Part shown: piece by piece, positions 3,467 through 45,262 of the stretch
Layout of the letters: every line of letters starts with the position of its first letter
Position numbering within the stretch: the first letter of the stretch is position 1
DNA from: Lytechinus pictus
Lineage: Eukaryota
NCBI RefSeq assembly: GCF_037042905.1
Contig: NC_087251.1
Coordinates: forward strand, 23,934,001 to 23,998,000
Direction of reading: 5' to 3'
Length of the DNA: 64,000 bases
Translations under genes and position numbers: made by a program
The notes under the pieces: generated by a model
What the model was told of the DNA's origin: nothing
The model's input: only the letters and a program-made list of their open reading frames with translations
Database searches by the model: none

Positions 3467-5386
3467 CATAGGCGGATCCAGGGGGGGGGGCGAGGGGCCT
3501 GGGTTCCCCTATTGGCGGAGCAAAAAAAAAAAGAAAAGAAAGGAAAGAAAGAAAAAAAGGGGGGAAATAGAGGAGAATAAAGAAGAGGAGGAAGACGAGT
3601 GAATAAAAAAGATTAAAATGAGGGGAAGACTTGGAAAATAAAAAGAATCTTTCAGGTCACTATAAAATTTTCGCTCGCGCTTCGCGCTCGCATTGCCTGT
3701 TAGGTGATTTACATAATTTGTTCAATATGGAGCTTAAATATCAAGTTTGGAAGTCAATATACAAAACATATTTCACCTCGACAATTGAACTTTCATTATT
3801 TTTTGTGATTTACAAATTTATTTTTATGAAGTGCTCTGTAAAAATGTCAGTTTTATGGTCTGAATAATAAAAAATTTCTGCTCGCGCTGCGCGCTCGCAA
3901 ATTTTGATTTATCTGGTACTTAATATTTTCGTGTATTCCATAAAGTTTTCAAAATATCCCTTTTCAGGTCTGTAGCCAAAACGTATCACCTAGCGCTGCA
4001 CGCTCGCATTTTGATTGGCGAGTAATGTAGGCCTATATTATGTGTCAATATTGATTCCCTTATTGATTACACGACAAACTACTTAAAATCTTCTTTTCAT
4101 GAAGGCAGTTTATCAAATATTTCGGCTCTCGCGATTTGCACTCGCATTAATTCCGCGCCCTCATTATGCATTAATAAATAAGATATCAATTTAATAATTA
4201 AATTGTCCTTTTGTTTCATCTCGCGCTTAATTAGCAAGAGGAATAGAAAGATAGTCATCATTTTCATATGATGACATGTCCTAAAGATGTCCCTGAAAAG
4301 TCATGTCCTATGTCAAAACTCAAAGTAATAATAATGAAAAATGTCAGCTCTTTATTAAGTGCGATCCATATCCACCTCACAATTTTCCTACAAAGTGCTT
4401 GAAATATATAGCTAAAATTGACCTTTTTTTAGATCGAAATATCAAATATTTTAAGCTCGCGCTTCGCGTTCGCTTTGATTTGCATGATAAAAGATGTATT
4501 TAGAATGCCTAGATTCTAGGATTAAATCTGAAACACGCGCGCGCATCTGCTCGCGCTTTGTGCTCGCATTATTAATGTAAGAAGATCTCCTATTACTCAT
4601 CCTTTTCATGATTTACAAAACACGAATAGATGAGTGTCCCGTTTTTATGTCTGAATCTCTAATTTTTCCACTCGCGCTTCGTGCTCGCATCAATTACTTA
4701 GTTATATAGCTATCTTGTTCACGATTACAAATATTGATTAAAATTTTCCATTCTTTATGTAGAAATGTCAAAAATTTCCAGCTCGCGCTTCGCGCTCGCA
4801 TTATTTGATTGTTGAAATATTACGTCTTCATGGCTAAGTGCAAGCAGTCCTTAACAGGTAGCGCCTACCTTTTCGATCAGTTCAAAACGTGAATTAAAAT
4901 TTTCTGCTCGTGCTTTGCGCTCGCATTATTAATGTAAGAAAGATCGCCAATCACTCATCCTTTTCATGATTTACAAAACATGAACAGACTGTCTCGTTTT
5001 TAGGTCTAAATCTCGAAATTTTTCGCTCGCGCTTTGCGCTCGAATCACATACCTATTCTGTTTAAGTTACAAAAAGTGCTTAGAATTTCCATTCTTGAGG
5101 TAAAAATTTCAGCTCGCGCCTGGCGCTCGCATTATTGATTGTTGAATAAAAATAAGAATACATAAAAATTCAACAACAAATTGCTCGCGCTTCGCATTGT
5201 ATAAATATTAAGGATTATGATATTATATATTTATGTTGATTTATAAGAATAAAGCTAAGAAGTAACTATTAGGACTACCCCTTCAAAGAAACAAACAAAA
5301 TATCATGTTCGAGCGGCCGATCGGAGAAAATATGGCTGAACAAAAAATCTGGGCCTCCCTATTGGCGAAGGCTGGATCCGTCCCTG
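3467..5386. mobile_element. ~1.9-kb TIR element with many GCTCGCGCTTCGCGCTCGCA motifs
   Basis: Ends CATAGGCGGATCCAG / CTGGATCCGTCCCTG; CCCTATTGGCG occurs near both ends; motif recurs about every 100-150 bp. Related fragments are scattered over ~39660-42700. Confidence 0.6.
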
Positions 5387-15018: not shown

Positions 15019-15518
15019 CTATGATGACTTCTCTCGTGTAGTCCGTCCCACATGCCAGTTATAAGCATTCACCATCAGCCTCTCCATACCACCATAGAAG
15101 ATCCCGACCCCTGTGAAGAACAATCCAACAATCAGGGTATGCCACCATGCAATGGAAGTGTACACCAACAGACACGTAATGAAGCACAAGAAGGAGATCC
15201 AGTAGACGAATGCGAGGAAGAGAGTGATACTGATCGCGGACACATATCCTCTGTCCACGCCGTCCCCGGTGGAGCTGCCGGATACGAACCTCCTGTCTCC
15301 GGTGTAATAATCCATGAGTTGGACCTCCTTCGCTTTCCATCTCTCTACACACCAGTCTTCATAGTTTGTATCTTGAGGTAGGGATTTGATGTCATATCGC
15401 TTCACATGGTAGTGGACCTCGTTGGGTAGCTTGGCCTTGAGGATATCCATCTCTCCACCTACAGGTATCCTATCAGGGTAGGCCACTGTCACGTCATAGA
15501 TGGCATCCACTGCTTCAT
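15019..15518 (-). CDS. LCLAT1: LCLAT1 last coding exon (acyltransferase C-terminal domain, TM helices, stop)
   Basis: TTTTGACAG acceptor, phase 1; encodes (H)EAVDAIYDVTVAYPDRIP...HYHVKRY...WCVERWKAKE...FYGGME...REKSS*. Lys at -3 resembles an ER-retrieval tail. Confidence 0.95.
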
Positions 15519-16056: not shown

Positions 16057-16188
16057 GTTTTCTTAGATGATCCATAATAAATTTGAAACCAGTTGTTCGA
16101 GGATGTAGAACATACTCATACTTTGGTAGATTATATTTTGTTGCATAGGAATCACTTCTATTCTTGCTGTCATCATTGTAGTCAGTTC
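16057..16188 (-). CDS. LCLAT1: LCLAT1 coding exon 5 (TDYN...VLHPRTTGF...)
   Basis: Not in the ORF track. TACAG acceptor; encodes (G)TDYNDDSKNRSDSYATKYNLPKYEYVLHPRTTGFKFIMDHLRK; C|GTGAGT donor. YEYVLHPRTTGF matches LCLAT1. Confidence 0.95.
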
Positions 16189-23478: not shown

Positions 23479-23809
23479 GTTAAGAGCGACTTTAAGAACG
23501 ACTGGTGAACCTTTCTTACGCGCTAAACCATCACCAATTCAATATACTATTTACCACAAGAAAGGATCACAAGTCCTTCTTAAAGTCGCTCTTAACTTAC
23601 GAACAGCTTTATGAAACACCCACCTGTTTCATAAAATAGATCCATATACAAGTTGAAACATTTCAAAAACTTAACCTTGTTACGTTTCTAGTTGATGGCT
23701 GTCACCGCCACCGTCGATGAGTGGTGCCCATGTCTAGCTTCTGCTAAACATGCAATATAAAAACAAATGGAAAAAAAAAAAAAATGAAATGAAAGAAATA
23801 TCTTCAAAC

Positions 23810-23941
23810 CTTCAGGAAAGATGAGATACTGAGCATTGTATCGCATATCACAGAAGTAATCTAACATCATGGCCAACGATTCTTTGTCTTGTTCCCAACG
23901 TCTTTTTAAGAAGATATATGACGCTATCTGCATTGCCCAGC
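23810..23941 (-). CDS. LCLAT1: LCLAT1 coding exon 4 (GWAMQ...IFPEG)
   Basis: TTCAG acceptor; encodes GWAMQIASYIFLKRRWEQDKESLAMMLDYFCDMRYNAQYLIFPEG (motifs II/III); GAAG|GTTTGA donor, phase 1. Confidence 0.95.
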
Positions 23942-24501
23942 CTGAATGCAAAGAAACAAATTAATATCATCCAAATAAATAAAGTAGTAGTTTTGGTACG
24001 TAGAGGAAGAGATTTTTTAGCATACATTATCATACCCCACATAAATCAACTTGAAAGGAAAACATCTTATTTTGTTGCCTCCATCAATAATTGATAAAGT
24101 GCTCTAAACCAAATATTTAATTGATTTGTTCTGGGCAAATTAATCCAGCTTGTGGAACAGGCTTTCAGACCCGCTTCAAAACATCACACCTTAAAATTTA
24201 CAATATTTAATCAATTCTTGCCAAGTTTATTATACAGTTGAAATTTGTTTTAACAAATATGATGAATTTTACAAATTAGATTAAGTGGTAGAGAAAATGC
24301 ACTTATTGGTTTGTGTAGTGGACAAGACATTGTGTGATGTCTGATATGCGACAAAATAAGTGCATTCTCTCTACAAGGGTATAATTGTGTTTCACTTTGA
24401 TTAGGATATTTTAATAGACTATTCAAAATTACTTGATCATTGTGAATTAATCATAAGACAAAGTCAGTCCTTGAATAATCATGTTTAGTTGCTTCTCTGA
24501 C

Positions 24502-24690
24502 CTGGCCCTGGTAAATGTTTGAGTTCATTCTTGAGGATGATCTTCTCTGATCTGACAGAACTGAGAGAGAAGAGGGGTATCCAGAAGAACATCCAATCCA
24601 ATCTTGTCCGATGGTTCATCATGATAACGCTCCTCTCTGATTTTCTCGGTCTGTCGCCGCTCACCCTACATTTCACTCCAAATATTACTT
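24502..24690 (-). CDS. LCLAT1: LCLAT1 coding exon 3, acyltransferase motif I (NHRTRLD)
   Basis: TTCGCAG acceptor; encodes (E)VIFGVKCRVSGDRPRKSERSVIMMNHRTRLDWMFFW...LKNELKHLPGP; CAG|GTCAGA donor, phase 1. Contains the HX4D catalytic motif of PlsC/AGPAT-family acyltransferases. Confidence 0.95.
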
Positions 24691-26830
24691 CTGCGAAACA
24701 AATGATAAAAGGCTTAATTCCATAGAAAAATAAGGTCTACTCTAAACTCAGTATTCTAAGGGTTGTTTATTATAAGGAATTGATACTGGTATGACTAAAT
24801 GAATAGTGGTTCATTTCATTCAAGTTTAATAATGATAACAATAGTAATAATATCAATTCAATTATGGTTCAATTAGGTTTCAATTAATAATAATACGAAC
24901 AACAATAAGACCACCATACCACTATTACTACTAATCATAATGATATTAATATTATAATAAAAGGTAATTCGGGTAGCAATGACAAGTTCATCCAGTAAGC
25001 CACTAGATAAGATGGAATGTAGAAATTATGCAATTTACTTCCAAAATCTGACTTGATTGACATGAAATATTCATTTTTTTGTGTCTTTTCATTCATGTCC
25101 CGTTCATCAAGTAAATATACTAGTTAAACGTTTTTAAACATCTTTATGATCTTTTAAAATAATAAAATAAATTTCATATTATATGAAATAAATCAAATTG
25201 AATTAAGATAGTTGAGGGGTCATTAATGCCAAAAAAAATATCAGTGCGCAAAGCAATCTTTGTCATGATAAAAGTAAGCTGGGGAGATAAATCAAAAGTT
25301 TTAGTTGATCTTGTTTTCATTATGCAGCATACATTATTTCACAATTTTTTAACCTAATACACTCTACCGAACAAAAACTCTGTCTGGCTTTCACAAAGGA
25401 CTAGAACATCACCATGGTAACTGATTGTGAGCTTAGTGAAGGATAATCAAATTTCCATTAACTCTAATGGCCAATGTGATGTCCAATGACAGTAGCTGAA
25501 TACTACATGTATGTGCACAAATCATTATTAGCCTCTACCATTATACTTACTCAGGACTATGCATGTACATGTCAGCCTCATATTTGCATTTAGAAGTATA
25601 TTATCATAAATATTGAGGATGCAATAAACATAAATTGTAGTGAAGTGATATTTTTGGTTCATTTTGAATGATTTACTGGTTCATGCTCTGCTGACTAAAG
25701 GCTAGCAAGAAAAGAGATCTCCATACACACCCAAACAAACCATCTAGGGTAGTATGTTGTGCATTGTCATTGCTCTATTACTGTTTTAAATAGTCATGCA
25801 TGTATTGCTATGATTGTCACCCCCCATAAGTAAAATAAGATAAAATGAAATAAAATGAATGATCAAATAAATAGATACAAACTGAAAAATTGGGGGGAAA
25901 TTGGCTTCTCTTTTAATAGAATGATAGCTATACCCAGATCACCCAAGAGTCTCACTACCTTCATCAATGTTATTTTACTTGCTTACTACTTTCACTTTCT
26001 AATCAGTGTGTTGATTTGTATGTACTATTCATAGGACATTATTAATGAAAGAAAATGCCGAAGTTAAGTTTTTATATATATCATGGATATTTATAAGATA
26101 TTTCACAATAAGACCCATCTTTTATTACTGTTAAAAAATTGTGATTGTAGGTGTAATGGTGCTTCATTTTATGTATTGTGCACCAGATTAGATTTTTCTA
26201 CTCTATATTATTATTTTTATATCAATAGGTAAAACTTTTGCACCTATTCTTTTACATATAAATAACAATAAATTTTTGGTTCTTTAAGTATTAACTGGTA
26301 GAAATTTAGAACACAATTGATAAAAGAAAAGGGACAGACCACTGTCCATTGGGACAGCATTATGTCTTCACAATGACTATTTCCTTCTTTCAAATAATCA
26401 TTAACTGGACATCAAGGTTGGCATATTTTGATAACATGTACAAATATTCAACTAACATAACAACATATGTCCATATTGTACAAGATGTCCCCCCCCCCCC
26501 TGGGCCCCATAGGGAGAAAAATTGTGTAATGTGGTAACATCGTCATTGAGAATTCAGAGATTTCCACATGATATATTTTGGTAGAATGGTAGATACAGTG
26601 TGCTTCTACATTTAAATGCCCTTGATACATTTCACACTGTATTTATATGTTTAGTTTTTTTTGTATGTTTGATTAGGAGTATGATATCAATCACATTGAA
26701 AAGTAATATACATGTTACCGGGTACTGGAATCTGATACTTTTTTACTAGTAAGTGCAAGAGGTGGTGGAGCACAAAAAAAACAGAAACACAACATGGATA
26801 AAGACAGTGAAAAAAAAACAATTAACTCAC

Positions 26831-26840
26831 CTAAAAAAAA
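26831..26840 (-). CDS. LCLAT1: LCLAT1 10-nt microexon (TTT TTT TTA G = F-F-L plus first base of E)
   Basis: Minus strand reads CTACAG|TTTTTTTTAG|GTGAGT. It bridges the phase-0 donor at 28939 to the phase-1 acceptor at 24690 and gives WLTLPV-FFLE-VIFGVK, colinear with vertebrate WLTLPV-ALLE-TMFGVK. Confidence 0.75.
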
Positions 26841-26907
26841 CTGTAGTTTTCCATTTGTCATGAAAATGAAACAAATAAAAATAAGCTTTGTGAAAGAGAT
26901 TAAGCAA

Positions 26908-27444
26908 TATGAATATGCGCAGTTCAATATCAAACATCCTAAAACTTATAAAAAAATAAACAAATCTATTCAAGTAAATATTTTCTGAGAATCTTTTTTT
27001 TATGAAAAAAAATGAAAAAGAAAAGCTAAAATGCATGATTGATGGGTATGAAATGATGGAAGTTTTAATATGTTATTTTGAAATAAATCAAGTCAACATC
27101 ACCTGGGCATAATTTCCTTGTTTCTGTTTATGTTTGTAATTCAGGTTTAACACAAGGAGACAACCAATAGATGAATATGAATATGCGCAGTTCTTCAATA
27201 TCAAACATCCTAAAACTTATACAAAAATAAACATAAATCTATTCAAATAAAAATACTTTCTGAGAATTTTTTTTTATGAAAAAAAAAATGAAAAAGAAAA
27301 GCTAAAATGCATGATGGGTATGAAATGCTGAAAGTTTTAATATGTTATTTTGAAATAAATCAAGTCAACATCACCTGGGCATAATTTCCTTGTTTCTGTT
27401 TATGTTTGTAATTCAGGTTTAACACAAGTAGACAACCAATAGAT
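26908..27444. repeat. Tandem duplication of ~270 bp, with a third degenerate copy at ~27840-27960
   Basis: ATGAATATGCGCAGTTC...GACAACCAATAGATGA occurs twice back to back. Confidence 0.9.
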
Positions 27445-28938
27445 GACCTTATATTCCAACGAATGTGTGTTAAAAGTTCAACAAGGAACCAGATTTAAGG
27501 GTACTCACAAAATATGGAGACTTTCCTTCTGTTTTCACAGCACATAAGTTATTAAACAAAATTGATAAACTACCAGAAATTTATGGACAACTGTCCTTCA
27601 AAAAACATGTATAAAGTAATTATCACCTCAAAATTGGAAAAGAAAAAAAAAGAAAATTTGCTACAAATAAACCGTCCTCTCCAATACAGACTAAAATTAC
27701 ACCTAACCAACTATGAAGTAAAAAAATAATAGATGCAGAAGTTAACATACACATACAATGCAGTGAAACATTTATAAAATTTCAACTTGAAATATCATTT
27801 TGTTTCTGACAAAACATCATGAACTGTAACTATCAAAACATATGAATATGCTCAGTAAACTATAAAACATCCTAAAACTGACATCTATTCAAATAAAAAA
27901 AAAACGATGATTTTTTTTCATGAAAACAGAAATGAAAAAGAAAAAAGCAGTGGGTATGAAACAAATCTCATTTCAGATCAACATTTCATAGGCTTTTTTT
28001 TTTAATTTATCATAACTTTCTTTATATTATACATGTATTTGATCAGATCTTGGCTAAAATACCCTTATCTGATACCTCCAATTAAAGTCAAATCTAATCC
28101 AATTTAATTTTGGAATTTGTATAGCAATTAATATTTAAAAAAAAAAAAAACCACAAAATAGTTATTTCTGGAAATGATGAATGTAATAATTACTTGCAAA
28201 GCAATCTGAAAAAGGGGACAATCTTCAGTCAAGTTCTAAATGTGGATATATTCAGCTGGCCAGAAGATTCAGTTGAGTATTCCATAGCCCACATAGTCTA
28301 CATATATATACATTGTAGATGTACATTCAGTAAATGGCCCAAATTAAAGTTTTAAAAGTGAAAAAAAAATCTGACAAGCAGACCTATGAATGTTTAAACA
28401 TAATTGTGCAAACATAAGCAAACAATAAGAGTGTTTTGAAATCTTATTATAAAAGGTTGTAATTATTTCATCAAAGGGGATTTCAAATTGACAACATATG
28501 AAATGTCATTGTGATGTACGCATGTAATGCCATGTTTGGTACACAAAATGAATGAAACATCATCCTTTACAAAAGCTTTACTCTAAATACTTTTTTTGTT
28601 TTAGTTTGCAAAGAAAAAAAAATACATTCTCATACTGATATATTTTTGATTACCTACTATCTATTATAGGTGCATAAGCTGAGGAGTTGTCCCTACTAAT
28701 TTTCACTTACAACCTAGTTGCCAAATTGCCAATTTGAAATTCACAAAGTCCTAGTAACCTTGTTCTACAAAGAGATATATCACTTTCTTATTCCTTGTCC
28801 AAGTTCTTTAAAACTTTCACCATAGCATTCTGTTTTTACATTTCTCTTTTTAACCGAATCATGGCATTACAAAGATTGGATTCCCCTTTAAGTTTTGGAT
28901 GTACTCTGGGACTTTATACTTACTGTACTAGTACTTAC

Positions 28939-29118
28939 CACTGGTAGTGTCAACCATAAAACCATGAGGTTATCATTGATGTGTCTGAATGCAAGAGGTC
29001 TGATGAACATAAGAGGTATCAAGGGCCCCATCATCAACATGGATCCAAAGAAAGCAGTAAACGAGAGGAGGGACACAAATAAAAACCCTCCTACCTTATT
29101 ATTCAAGATTCCACCCAT
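28939..29118 (-). CDS. LCLAT1: LCLAT1 coding exon 1 (aa 1-60, N-terminal membrane segment)
   Basis: Translates MGGILNNKVGGFLFVSLLSFTAFFGSMLMMGPLIPLMFIRPLAFRHINDNLMVLWLTLPV, matching the vertebrate LCLAT1 N-terminus as I recall it (..SFFGSIFMLSPFLPLMF..WLTLPV). Ends at donor GTG|GTAAGT, phase 0. Confidence 0.93.
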
Positions 29119-29273
29119 CCTAAACGTCTAATTCTATCGAGAGTGACCTGTAGGATGATACAACATGGTACTGTAGGATTAGAAAGGTAGGAATACAGAT
29201 CATGTCAGCAGATTATGCATTAACACTTTTGAAAACTGCACAGGTTTGACATGATTACAGGCGATTAATAAAA

Positions 29274-30542
29274 AACAAGTGGAGCGCCTCTGGCTGTCTC
29301 ACCTGCATCACGCGATTGAATATAGCAGCAGTGCTGACTTTGAAAACTACTATAAAATAATTATTCACAAAAAAACACCATACATAATGATACAATACTA
29401 CGTTCATTGACAACAGATGACATTTGACCATGATCATGCAACCTAAGACTTGGCAGTGATACTTGGTTACCCCTATATCCACATTTTATAGACTAAATCT
29501 ATAAACTTTGAAAGTTATGACAGCAATCTAATAATTACCTCCAAAATGGCCAAAGTTCAATGACCTTAAATGACCTTTGACTTTGGTCATGTGACCTGAA
29601 ACTCACATGAGATGTTCAATGATACTTTAATTACTCTTATGTCAAAGTTTTATGAACTAGACCAATACACCCCAACATGGCCAAAGTCCACTGACCTTTG
29701 ACCTTGGTCATGTGACCTGAAACTCCTACAGGACGTATAGTGATACTTGATTACTCTTATGTCCAAGTTTTATGAACTAGACCAATACACTTACAGAGTT
29801 ATGATGGTATTCAACAAATACCCCCAACATGGCCAAAGTTCATTGACCTTAAATGACCTTTGACCTTGGTCATGTGACCTGAAACTTGCACAGGATGTTC
29901 AGTGATACTTGATTACTCTTATGTCCAAGTTGTATGAACTAGACCAATAAACTTTCAAAGTTATGATGGCAATTCAACAAATACCCCCAACTTGGCCAAA
30001 GTGCATTGACCCTTGACCTTGGTCATGTGACCTGAAATTTGCACAAGATGTTCAGTGATACTTGATTACTCTTATGTTTTATGAAATAGATCCATAAACT
30101 TCAGAGTTATGATGGTTTTTCAACAATTACCCCCAACTTGGCCAAAGTTCATTGACCTTAAATGACCTCTGACCTTGATCATGTGATCTGAAACTCGCAC
30201 AGGATGTGCAGTGATACTTGATTTCTCTTATGTCCAAGTTTCATGAATCAGATCCATAAACTTTTAAAGTTATGATGGTTTTTCAACAAATACCCCCAAT
30301 TTGGCCAAAGTTAATTGACCCTAAATTACCTTTGACCTTGGTCATGTGACCCAAAACTCAGGCAGGATATCAGTAATACTTGATTAACCTTATGTTCAAG
30401 TTTCATGAACTACATGTAGGTCTATATATTTTCTAAGTTATGCTGGTATTTCAAAAACTTAACCTTCGGTTAAGACTTGGTGTTGACGCCGCCGCCGTCG
30501 GAAAAGCGGCGCCTATAGTCTCTCTCTGCTTCGCAGGTGAGA
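29274..30542 (-). mobile_element. Same family, copy 4, with about six internal ~120-163-bp units
   Basis: Both ends present; unit marker GA(C/T)C(T/C)(G/A)AAA near 29593, 29714, 29876, 30029, 30185 and 30348. Confidence 0.7.
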
Positions 30543-42770: not shown

Positions 42771-45262
42771 TGATTGATTGATTGATTGCATTTATTCTTT
42801 TTCATTCCAAAATTTAACAAAAGTTACAATGTATAGCAAAACACAAAAATATAATATACAGAAATGAAAAAAGGGAACCCACTGGAAAGCAAAGCTTGTT
42901 AGTATGGGTTCCCTGCAATAAATAGTTAATTAAAGTATATCTTTGATCAATGAAATTCAAATCGTAAATTAAAAAGGTTTGTACAATGAAAAAGAATACT
43001 AGTGGGGTCAAGCTATTTATGCCTACTATGTTACAATTAACAAAAAATATTATATCATATACACCCCTGCTGTATAAAAAAAACATGAGTACAGGAGTGT
43101 GTGAAGAGACAATCACTTGGACAAGACAGGACAAATACTAAAAGCAAAACAAAGACAAAAACAAAAAAGGCACACAAATAAAAACAAAACAAAACACACT
43201 ACAAAACATAGATAAACAGGAAAATAAGAAAAGCAATAGATAGGAAGAGAAAGAGAAAAAAAATGTGAGAGGGAGGGGGAAAGAGAAGAGGGAAGAAAAT
43301 AAGAAGGGTAGAAGAACAAGAGGTGGTAGCTGCTTATACAGAAATGTTTAAGTTCTGGGGTTTATACCCAAGGATAAGAATTTTCTTTAACCCTCGACTG
43401 AAACTTAAATGTGTTGGTTTGTTACGTAATGATTCTATAAGGGAGTTCCAAAGTTTGATACCTGTAAAAATAAATGTTTTATTTAAAAGGACTTCTAGCT
43501 CTTGGTGGATGAAAGAGCCCGCGGGCGGACCTAGTAGGATAATGATGAATATCGACATTTTTTGTAAACATGGAATAAAAAATATTTGGAAGTTCATTTT
43601 TATCTAAACTATACATGAGTTTTCCGAGATTGTATCGATACAAGTCACTAATCTTCAAAATATTATATTTATAGAAAAGTTCGTCAGTGTGTGAACGAAA
43701 ATCTGCATGACAAATAATACGAATAGCCTTTTTCTGTAAAAGTAAAATTCTGTTCAGGAGGCAGTCAGCACAATTCCCCCATGCTGTTATACCGTAGTTT
43801 AAATGAGGCAGGATCAAAGTTGAAAAAAAAAATTAAATAGTATATGAGTGGGAAAGAAAATGTTTACTTTGTTTCTGATACCAACATTTCTCGAAATAAT
43901 TTTACAAATGTGATCAACGTGTTCTTTCCAGGAAAGATTATTATCGATGGTTACCCCAAGAAATTTAGTACTGCCAACTCTTTGTAAATTAGTATTTTCG
44001 AAAATTATATTACCTGGAAGTTCATATATGATATTACTAAAGAGCATATAATTTGTTTTTTGGAGATTAAGGACGTTCCACAGTTATGTTTGTGCGCATT
44101 ATGATCTACGCATATTTAACACTCCGCGCGCTGACGTCACAATGGATGAACAGGTGATTAATTAGCTGTGGGTATGAGCTGATTTTTCTCATCATCTGCA
44201 TCCTAACTGCACATCCGATGCGTTATTTTATGAAGCTAAAAAAATGGAATTATTCCATGGACCATTTAAAAAAATATCTCTACAATTTAAAAATACTTTA
44301 CTCTGCAGTACTGCCAAGAATCACGAATATGACCCCAAGTTTGAATAAATGGTAGAGTGGTTTTGATTTTTCTTCACATAGATACAAAGCATTTGGCGCA
44401 TTTTTGGTGTTTTAAAAAGCACGTTTGCTCATATAAAAATGCTAATAGTTTGAAAACAAGCACATGAACCCCTATTTTTTAATGTTTGTACCTCTTAAGT
44501 ATAGATTCCTCTACAACTTTGCAAATTTAGGTGAAAATGACATGGATTTTGAATAAAGTGCAGCATTTATTGTACTTTTGTAGTCTGTTATTGAAATTTC
44601 ACATTTTTGAGATTGAGTTTTTGTTATCTTTTACGCCATTTTTAAGAACTGACTGTGCTGTTAGAATTAAAGTTGCAAAAAAATAGCACAATAATTAGAT
44701 TCTCTATTCTAACGATACAATTATTAACTCTCTTGCGAAATTTGAAGACTTTTTCATGTATTTTGACTGAGTAATAGAGGTTTAAACTCATTGTAGTATT
44801 CTTGAGAGGTCTAAAAATGCCAAATTCTTTTGAATGCGAAATTCTTAAGAACATCAATTTGGGTGAACTTTGAAGCTCTATAGCAAAAAATCAAGCACAT
44901 GGACCTATGTTAATTTTTGCATATTTCGAATATTAAGGTTCTAAAGTATCTATGTGCAAAGTTTGGTGAAAATGACATGGATTTCACTTTAACTGTGGAA
45001 CGTCCTTAAGGGATAGTTTGTTAGCTTTGATCCATACAGATACATGTACTATATAGTTCGTGATTAATGGTGGCAAGCAAATGGTGTGGATCCTTATGGG
45101 AGAAAAAAATATTATAATCGTCAGCAAACAGAATAAAGGATAAATTATTGGAGGACTTACAAAAATCATTTATGTATATAAGAAAAGTAGGGGACCCAAA
45201 ATAGAGCCTTGCGGAACCCCACAAGCAACAAGTTTTGTTTCGGAGTTAAAGATACATTATAA
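42771..45262 (-). pseudogene. 5'-truncated, frameshifted CR1/L2-type LINE (RT C-terminal half, 3'UTR, (TCAA)n tail)
   Basis: Fragments CGVPQGS.., ND....LFADD, ANKLSL|NLQKTNYMLF (rejoined across the TTAA insertion), KFLGVTIDNNLSWKEHV, ILPHLNYGITAWG, LQKKAIRII; AATAAA plus (TCAA)n tail at 42771-42796 on the minus strand. Confidence 0.85.
44071..45005. mobile_element. Same Kolobok-like family, 935 bp, opposite orientation, without the array; inserted in a LINE
   Basis: TTAA TSD (44067-44070, 45006-45009); TIR GGACGTTCCACAGTTA / TAACTGTGGAACGTCC; interior is the reverse complement of ~33100-33990. Confidence 0.85.

Follow-up and report, generated by a model that had tools for sequence, protein, structure and literature searches.

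A 10-nt coding microexon, probably constitutive and of early animal origin, in the LCLAT1 gene of the sea urchin Lytechinus pictus

The LCLAT1 locus of Lytechinus pictus

The window analysed here is a 64,000-nt stretch of the Lytechinus pictus genome (contig NC_087251.1, positions 23,934,001 to 23,998,000). On its minus strand lies a gene whose best named matches are LCLAT1 proteins, with 43-49% identity to named vertebrate LCLAT1 proteins. The PF01553 and PF16076 domains were found above their curated cut-offs in the RefSeq proteins P0003 and P0008, the H-X4-D and F-P-E-G motifs are present, and the exon downstream of the segment studied below is 100% identical to a RefSeq L. pictus protein named lysocardiolipin acyltransferase 1-like. 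Judged by these matches, the gene is a predicted LCLAT1 (lysocardiolipin acyltransferase 1) of the AGPAT family. With a 10-nt segment included, the six coding exons form a single open reading frame (ORF) of 380 codons (Table 1). The first coding exon opens with an ATG at 29118 and runs for 60 codons to W-L-T-L-P-V before a phase-0 donor, GTAAGT, and the catalytic H90-X4-D95 motif is encoded at 24613-24596 within the 189-nt exon. The ORF is identical to RefSeq XP_054758615.2 except for FFLE in place of VK, and differs from L. variegatus XP_041468834.1 at 17 residues.

Table 1. Features of the LCLAT1 gene in the window (window coordinates)
Feature	Position	Strand	Basis or remark
First coding exon	28939..29148	-	Contig X1 piece 28939-29148 and read depth
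Out-of-frame ATG, start of RefSeq L. pictus isoform X2 (323 aa, exon-skipping model)	28955..28957	-	Eighth ATG of the exon
Pyrimidine-rich tract, putative role in splicing of the microexon	26861..26903	-	About 20 nt back from the microexon acceptor, purine-rich spacer between
Microexon acceptor CAG	26841..26843	-	The 8-T insert of the junction reads implies its use
Coding microexon TTTTTTTTAG, 10 nt: codons F61, F62, L63 and first base of E64	26831..26840	-	Junction reads and contig
Microexon donor GTGAGT, phase 1	26825..26830	-	Intron T-rich for about 50 nt after it
189-nt exon starting within codon E64	24502..24690	-	Same 189-nt length in loci L030, L031 and L032
132-nt coding exon	23810..23941	-	Junction to the preceding exon in 53, 46 and 33 reads
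132-nt coding exon	16057..16188	-	Identity to RefSeq P0003; beyond the read-mapped region
Last coding exon, stop codon included	15019..15518	-	Sequence; beyond the read-mapped region

When the exon ending at 28939 is joined directly to the acceptor at 24690, the product reads W-L-T-L-P-V-K-stop, with the stop (24687-24685) at codon 62, 26 codons ahead of HX4D and 186 nt upstream of the next junction, confirming the frameshift that the original prediction had claimed for this join. Between the two exons, CTACAG ending at 26841, TTTTTTTTAG at 26840-26831 and GTGAGT from 26830 follow one another on the minus strand, an internal exon of ≤15 nt between AG and GT; its insertion restores FFLE opposite vertebrate ALLE and opens the full ORF, again as had been proposed. 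The 4,248-nt intron holds 15 AG-N10-GT candidates, two of them with a GTRAG donor, and only TTTTTTTTAG is both open and family-like. Likewise, 13 AG-N10-GTRAG sites occur on the two strands of the window, and family-like residues plus G are encoded only at TTTTTTTTAG. The string T8AG is found once in the microexon-bearing intron, namely as the microexon. Upstream of it, the pyrimidine fraction takes values of 0.8, 0.5, 0.8 and 0.8 and then 0.4 and 0.3 in the 20 nt preceding the AG of the acceptor. The GC content of the microexon region is 28-34%.

Three further features of the window were recorded. A two-copy tandem duplication of 272 bp (26906-27446, 92% match) stops about 65 nt upstream of the acceptor of the microexon and excludes the latter. 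Just upstream of the first coding exon, a high-copy transcribed repeat (29270-29400) reaches a depth of about 1,700-1,900 in every RNA run, nearly all on one strand and in many variants. An open stretch of 117 aa at 43479-43832 on the minus strand presumably resembles a LINE-type reverse transcriptase in its C-terminal part.

The microexon is present in spliced RNA

The region 23700-29400 was covered with raw RNA-seq reads from three runs that belong to a single study (about 6% of each run) and with contigs from one run of another study. The runs were picked by species label and then judged by mapping, their samples come without a stated tissue or stage, and a junction was listed when 3 reads from 2 starts supported it. 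One junction form was found across the gap, linking 24692 with 28939 through an insert of 8 A (plus strand). This insert was carried by 19/20 reads in run X8, 29/34 in X9 and 13/16 in X10, and contig X1 of the second study has 8 A at the same junction. Because the terminal AG of the microexon aligns to the last AG of the intron (24692-24691), the 8-letter insert corresponds to exactly the predicted 10-nt exon, and the junction forecast for the coding strand is the one that the reads carry. Contig X1 also has an extra 29 nt of 5' sequence that lies outside the region used for read mapping.

Pooled over the three runs, 61 of the 70 junction reads have 8 T, in agreement with contig X1 and with the run length originally read from the genome; seven have 9 T (9-A inserts in four reads of X9 and three of X10) and two were not itemised. 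The T-run is present in 68/70 junction reads and one contig, and the dependence of LCLAT1 on a 10-nt microexon, as originally claimed, is borne out by the 70 reads and the contig. The microexon is in the mRNA, the frame breaks without TTTTTTTTAG, and relatives keep its residues.

Neither a direct skip nor a +4-donor or AAG-acceptor (24712) junction was listed in the three raw runs and the contig set. Even in the worst case, at most two skip reads per run would be hidden, that is 6/76 (8%), and with the skip form unlisted in 4/4 runs, inclusion was near 100% in the samples examined. The bin that contains the microexon (26756-26946) has zero depth, and the 4.2-kb intron is nearly free of intronic reads. 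The ratio of junction reads to local depth is 0.62-0.76 at the microexon and 0.86-1.0 at the next junction; the lower value probably arises from short overhangs beyond the insert, which cannot be placed.

RefSeq models and protein context

The microexon is missing from all three RefSeq L. pictus models, as gene predictors had been expected to miss it. Model X1 uses a +4 donor and reads V-V-K-V-I-F at the microexon position. Model X2 (P0009), in which the two neighbouring exons are spliced straight to each other, opens with M-V-D-T-T-S-E, an out-of-frame reading of the upstream exon that continues into 24690. A previous version has its start only at the catalytic motif. Proteins of sea urchins, taken by themselves, have at residues 61-64 LFLE in L. 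variegatus, LLLE in S. purpuratus and LLLE or LFLQ in Diadema, a sea urchin-like transcript contig has LLME, and one S. purpuratus model is two residues short at this position. Exons of 10 nt can defeat aligners and thereby yield skip models of the X2 type. Misannotation of microexons is documented in a survey of plants (PMC8831610).

Diadema has a second LCLAT1-like paralogue (P0300/P0144) with L-L-L-E at the microexon position, one model of which breaks there, and the L. variegatus RefSeq isoform X2 (P0004) is without the 132-nt exon that matches window 16188-16057 (44 residues, in frame).

The distance from W55 to H90 is 36 residues in 123 of the 125 scorable proteins, the two exceptions being RefSeq sea urchin models; 10 more records are without the motifs. 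Residue 61 is L or F in sea urchin proteins versus A or S in most other animals. An AlphaFold prediction for the protein of L. variegatus (mean pLDDT 82, 14 sequences) places residues 61-64 at the end of helix 41-66, where they make up its final turn (pLDDT about 87); the first strand of the catalytic domain follows immediately. This position in the last helix turn, together with the invariant length, argues that the microexon is not an optional loop insert. The sole solved relative is a distant bacterial PlsC, which is matched from profile position 70 onward and is therefore uninformative on residues 61-64.

Orthologous loci and intron history

Scanning metagenome contigs identified 61 loci, in which codon 61 was placed from the N-H-R motif; L054, in which the script found no such motif, was read by eye. 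The intron count omits 15 loci without an intron here (transcript-like or intronless), one at a contig edge and 16 without the N-H-R motif. In 23 loci belonging to six sequence clusters, the acceptor lies just before codon 61 and the 10 nt are inside a long exon. The fish-like cluster among these matches teleost proteins at 98-100%, and its exon of 199 nt equals 10 + 189 (L046). For three fused-exon loci (L019, L044 and L046), the upstream donor is visible as well.

In five loci from two clusters, the acceptor lies 10 nt later, within the Glu codon as in the window. Four of them are coral-like (L030, L031, L053 and L054) and match Stylophora at 78-85% (L031 at 85%), and the fifth, L032, is an animal locus with 60-67% to its best matches. 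In L031, a phase-0 donor at 1345 after L-L-L-P-P, AG-GCCCTTCTGG-GTAAGT at 1538-1547 and a phase-1 acceptor at 4188 give an open predicted frame that reads A-L-L-E as in the Stylophora protein; there are 11 AG-N10-GT candidates in L031, and only GCCCTTCTGG is followed by a GTRAG donor. Similarly, L032 has AG-GTACTGATAG-GTAAGT at 520-529, predicted from the DNA to encode V-L-I-E, plus a phase-1 acceptor, with its upstream exon off the contig; two of its six candidates have a GTRAG donor, and the other one reads D-I-G. L030, L053 and L054 have the phase-1 acceptor, their contigs end before any microexon, and they contain no AG-N10-GT candidate with a GTRAG donor. The comparison of orthologous introns called for by the original prediction thus returned a predicted 10-nt exon in both L031 and L032, but the T-run and AG signature is gone in L031: GCCCTTCTGG ends TGG and has neither a T-run nor a terminal AG. 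The exon GTACTGATAG ends TAG.

Two peculiarities of single loci are recorded here. GTACTGATAG (L032, 520-529) begins GTAC, a partial donor, and is in this respect a better candidate for a recursive exon than the sea urchin microexon. L022 (about 2680-2723) has a single intron one base off the usual phase-0 position, in phase 1 inside codon 61, possibly the result of a one-base intron slide.

In amphioxus, the RefSeq isoform X2 (P0148) reads the upstream exon out of frame and joins it at Glu, which implies the same two splice sites there. Compared with the B. belcheri protein in the shifted frame, 25/40 positions of P0148 are compatible, whereas shuffles gave a mean of 8.6 and a maximum of 18 in 5,000. 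Of six proteins put to this shifted-frame test, P0148 and the control P0009 were positive, and P0144, P0293, P0203 and P0180 (4/6) were negative. A sponge model (Corticium) breaks exactly at Glu after intron-like residues, a weak hint of an intron at Glu in sponges. Breaks near the site occur in other models too: those of Corticium (P0298/P0203) fall at Glu, and those of Hydractinia (P0285), Timema (P0237/P0303) and Gryllus (P0180/P0301) fall just before A-x-x-E, hinting that the breaks reflect which introns each lineage has.

Overall, the position and length of the microexon are conserved in L031 and L032 according to their DNA and in amphioxus according to a protein model, and a separate exon is absent in the 23 fused loci. 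Since the position is shared between a coral-like gene and deuterostomes, ancestry with losses is the simpler reading compared with repeated gain, an argument drawn from shared positions. The microexon is therefore probably older than the cnidarian-bilaterian split, and its downstream intron was probably lost in several lineages.

A spliced-in coding microexon and its alternatives

The segment 26840-26831 is a coding microexon that is spliced into the mRNA, and we consider it quite likely that it is constitutive, descends from an early animal ancestor and is not a regulatory switch. The ancestral animal gene would have had two introns 10 nt apart, one in phase 0 before residue 61 and one in phase 1 inside Glu64. 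Both may have been retained in the coral-like, sea urchin and amphioxus genes and in one further animal gene (L032), while loss of the second intron in fish-like, annelid-like and nematode-like genes would have merged the 10 nt with the exon that follows. Inclusion likely depends on the near-perfect donor (AG/GTGAGT here, GTAAGT in L031 and L032) and on the set-back pyrimidine tract, which is clear in the window and L032 and less so in L031. The T-run would be a by-product of Phe and Leu codons in an AT-rich genome, as it is spelled by codons for Phe/Phe/Leu where relatives have L/A-L/F-L. Of the other four coding donors in LCLAT1, two are also preceded by exons ending in AG; the acceptor look of the microexon is likely incidental, its terminal AG being the usual exonic half of a donor.

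The exon could also be usually included and yet skipped in some tissues, stages or stresses, with nonsense-mediated decay (NMD) of the product tuning LCLAT1 output, which would explain its long retention. A transcript whose stop precedes the next junction by 186 nt is likely destroyed by NMD, so steady-state reads would undercount the skip form; NMD would thus hide the very product of the stop at codon 62. For two distant species, RefSeq contains X2 models without the exon (P0009 and P0148), which may be real skip transcripts, and the junction-to-depth ratio at the microexon is below that of its neighbour. However, the on/off splicing switch inferred originally is not supported by the RNA, as the skip junction was unlisted in the three raw runs and in the contig set, and the X2 models can be aligner artefacts. 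Moreover, animal loci from six or more sequence clusters (the 23 fused loci) are devoid of the second intron, so such control is not needed in general. Taken together, regulated skipping is decidedly unlikely. A bolder form of the idea, also unlikely in our estimation, holds that corals, sea urchins and amphioxus have kept the exon as a hidden NMD-coupled dial of LCLAT1 that predates the cnidarian-bilaterian split and possibly extends to sponges, and that fish gave the dial up by losing the intron. If this were true, skipping unseen in steady-state RNA would tune phospholipid remodelling, and the RefSeq skip models would be its traces.

Compatible with a constitutive microexon is the proposal that T8 is a slippage site, or carries a polymorphic null allele, and gives real frameshifted LCLAT1 mRNA. 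The 9-T class does exist (7/70 junction reads, 10%, 95% interval 4-20%, in two of the three runs), and no 7-T class was listed. For 8-base A/T runs, however, one report gives a reverse-transcription error of 3.7% that is biased towards expansion, and a true RNA-level rate of 0.4%, about ten times lower (PMC5026258). The excess over 3.7% has P = 0.02 if the reads are independent and 0.11 under an assumed 4/45 fragments; mates and duplicates are counted together in the 7/70, and no in-run homopolymer control was visible. In addition, the T8 run is specific to the F-F-L codons of L. pictus. Hence, of the earlier suggestion that the T-run is slippage-prone, the occurrence of 9-T reads stands, at a rate near, and somewhat above, the reverse-transcription error that falls short of demonstrating biological slippage. 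The 9-T reads are probably technical, and we give the proposal little chance.

The original prediction had further likened the microexon to a recursive (zero-length) splice site, in which T8-AG followed by GTGAGT would compete with the upstream CAG and switch the gene off. The pyrimidine run, TAG and perfect donor are indeed in register, with tract and AG abutting the donor, joining of the upstream exon would rebuild a strong donor, and the L032 exon also ends in AG. Nevertheless, the 10 nt are kept in the mature mRNA, as the junction reads reveal, and the end product of recursive use would be the skip junction, which is unlisted. An AG before the GT is conserved in only one of the two orthologues (TAG in L032, TGG in L031), the coral-like exon being devoid of both T-run and terminal AG, and AG before GT is in any case the normal donor consensus. 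No intermediate was seen, though the 4.2-kb intron had almost no reads. A recursive site is accordingly very improbable.

Three other routes would restore the frame and dispense with the microexon, namely a 55-nt exon starting at 26885, the AAG acceptor at 24712 and the +4 donor that RefSeq X1 employs. This reading has virtually no chance of being correct: all three are open in frame and RefSeq X1 does use the +4 donor, yet none is among the listed junctions, the depth at 26756-26946 is zero, and each would alter the spacing fixed in 123/125 proteins. The weak AAG acceptor had been named as a possible rescue from the outset, and with no such junction listed in RNA the microexon first proposed stands. 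A search for other frame-restoring exons of ≤60 nt had yielded 58 open candidates, which the junction reads ruled out as the main form.

Comparison with known microexons

The constitutive microexon favoured here resembles several described classes in part. A survey of plants reports constitutive coding microexons of ≤15 nt whose length is not a multiple of three and which annotation missed (Yu et al. 2022, PMC8831610). Like the LCLAT1 exon, these are coding and of high inclusion, are conserved in position across distant species and are mis-annotated, but the survey covers plants only, and its main text does not mention acyltransferase (PMC8831610). According to the same source, a length divisible by 3 is found in about 80% of human microexons, against 10 nt for the LCLAT1 exon. 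Among animals, a long-retained microexon of Arp2 is similar in age, is also tiny and holds one position across distant species while its sequence drifts; it is described as an in-frame alternative insert that gives two proteins and is kept in vertebrates (bioRxiv 10.1101/2025.10.12.681909). In contrast, the frame depends on the LCLAT1 exon, whose residues belong to a predicted helix and which the fish-like locus has merged with the next exon.

Recursive sites and RS-exons, as characterized by Blazquez et al. (2018, PMC6224609), share with the LCLAT1 exon an acceptor-like AG directly before a donor motif, but use of the recursive donor is stated to remove the segment without trace, whereas the 10 nt of LCLAT1 stay in the mature mRNA. 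The neural microexons that depend on eMIC/SRRM4 are likewise very short, and their pyrimidine tract lies at a distance from the acceptor; they are reported to be neural and switch-like, to carry UGC near the acceptor and to have arisen in bilaterians (PMC8797185). Unlike them, the LCLAT1 exon breaks the frame when skipped and has a counterpart in a coral-like gene. By eye, the 60 nt ahead of the acceptor contain no TGC motif in either the window or L031, and one in L032. Full inclusion in all runs also argues against neural-specific inclusion.

The microexon has apparently not been described before: no description was found in the literature on LCLAT1, acyltransferase or sea urchin microexons, although supplementary exon tables may list it.

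Significance

The present analysis corrects the RefSeq LCLAT1 models of a laboratory sea urchin, all three of which have wrong residues 61-64 and one of which represents a frameshifted transcript. On present evidence, it does not reveal a new control of lipid metabolism. It offers instead a clear case, in animals, of a 10-nt exon that is indispensable for the frame, is common to a coral-like gene and deuterostomes and has been fused away in other lineages. Such a microexon would be older than the machinery for neural microexons that has been described in bilaterians. It would therefore provide a tractable test of how the spliceosome reliably includes very short exons without neural enhancers, and its fusion to the next exon may serve as a usable marker of intron loss.
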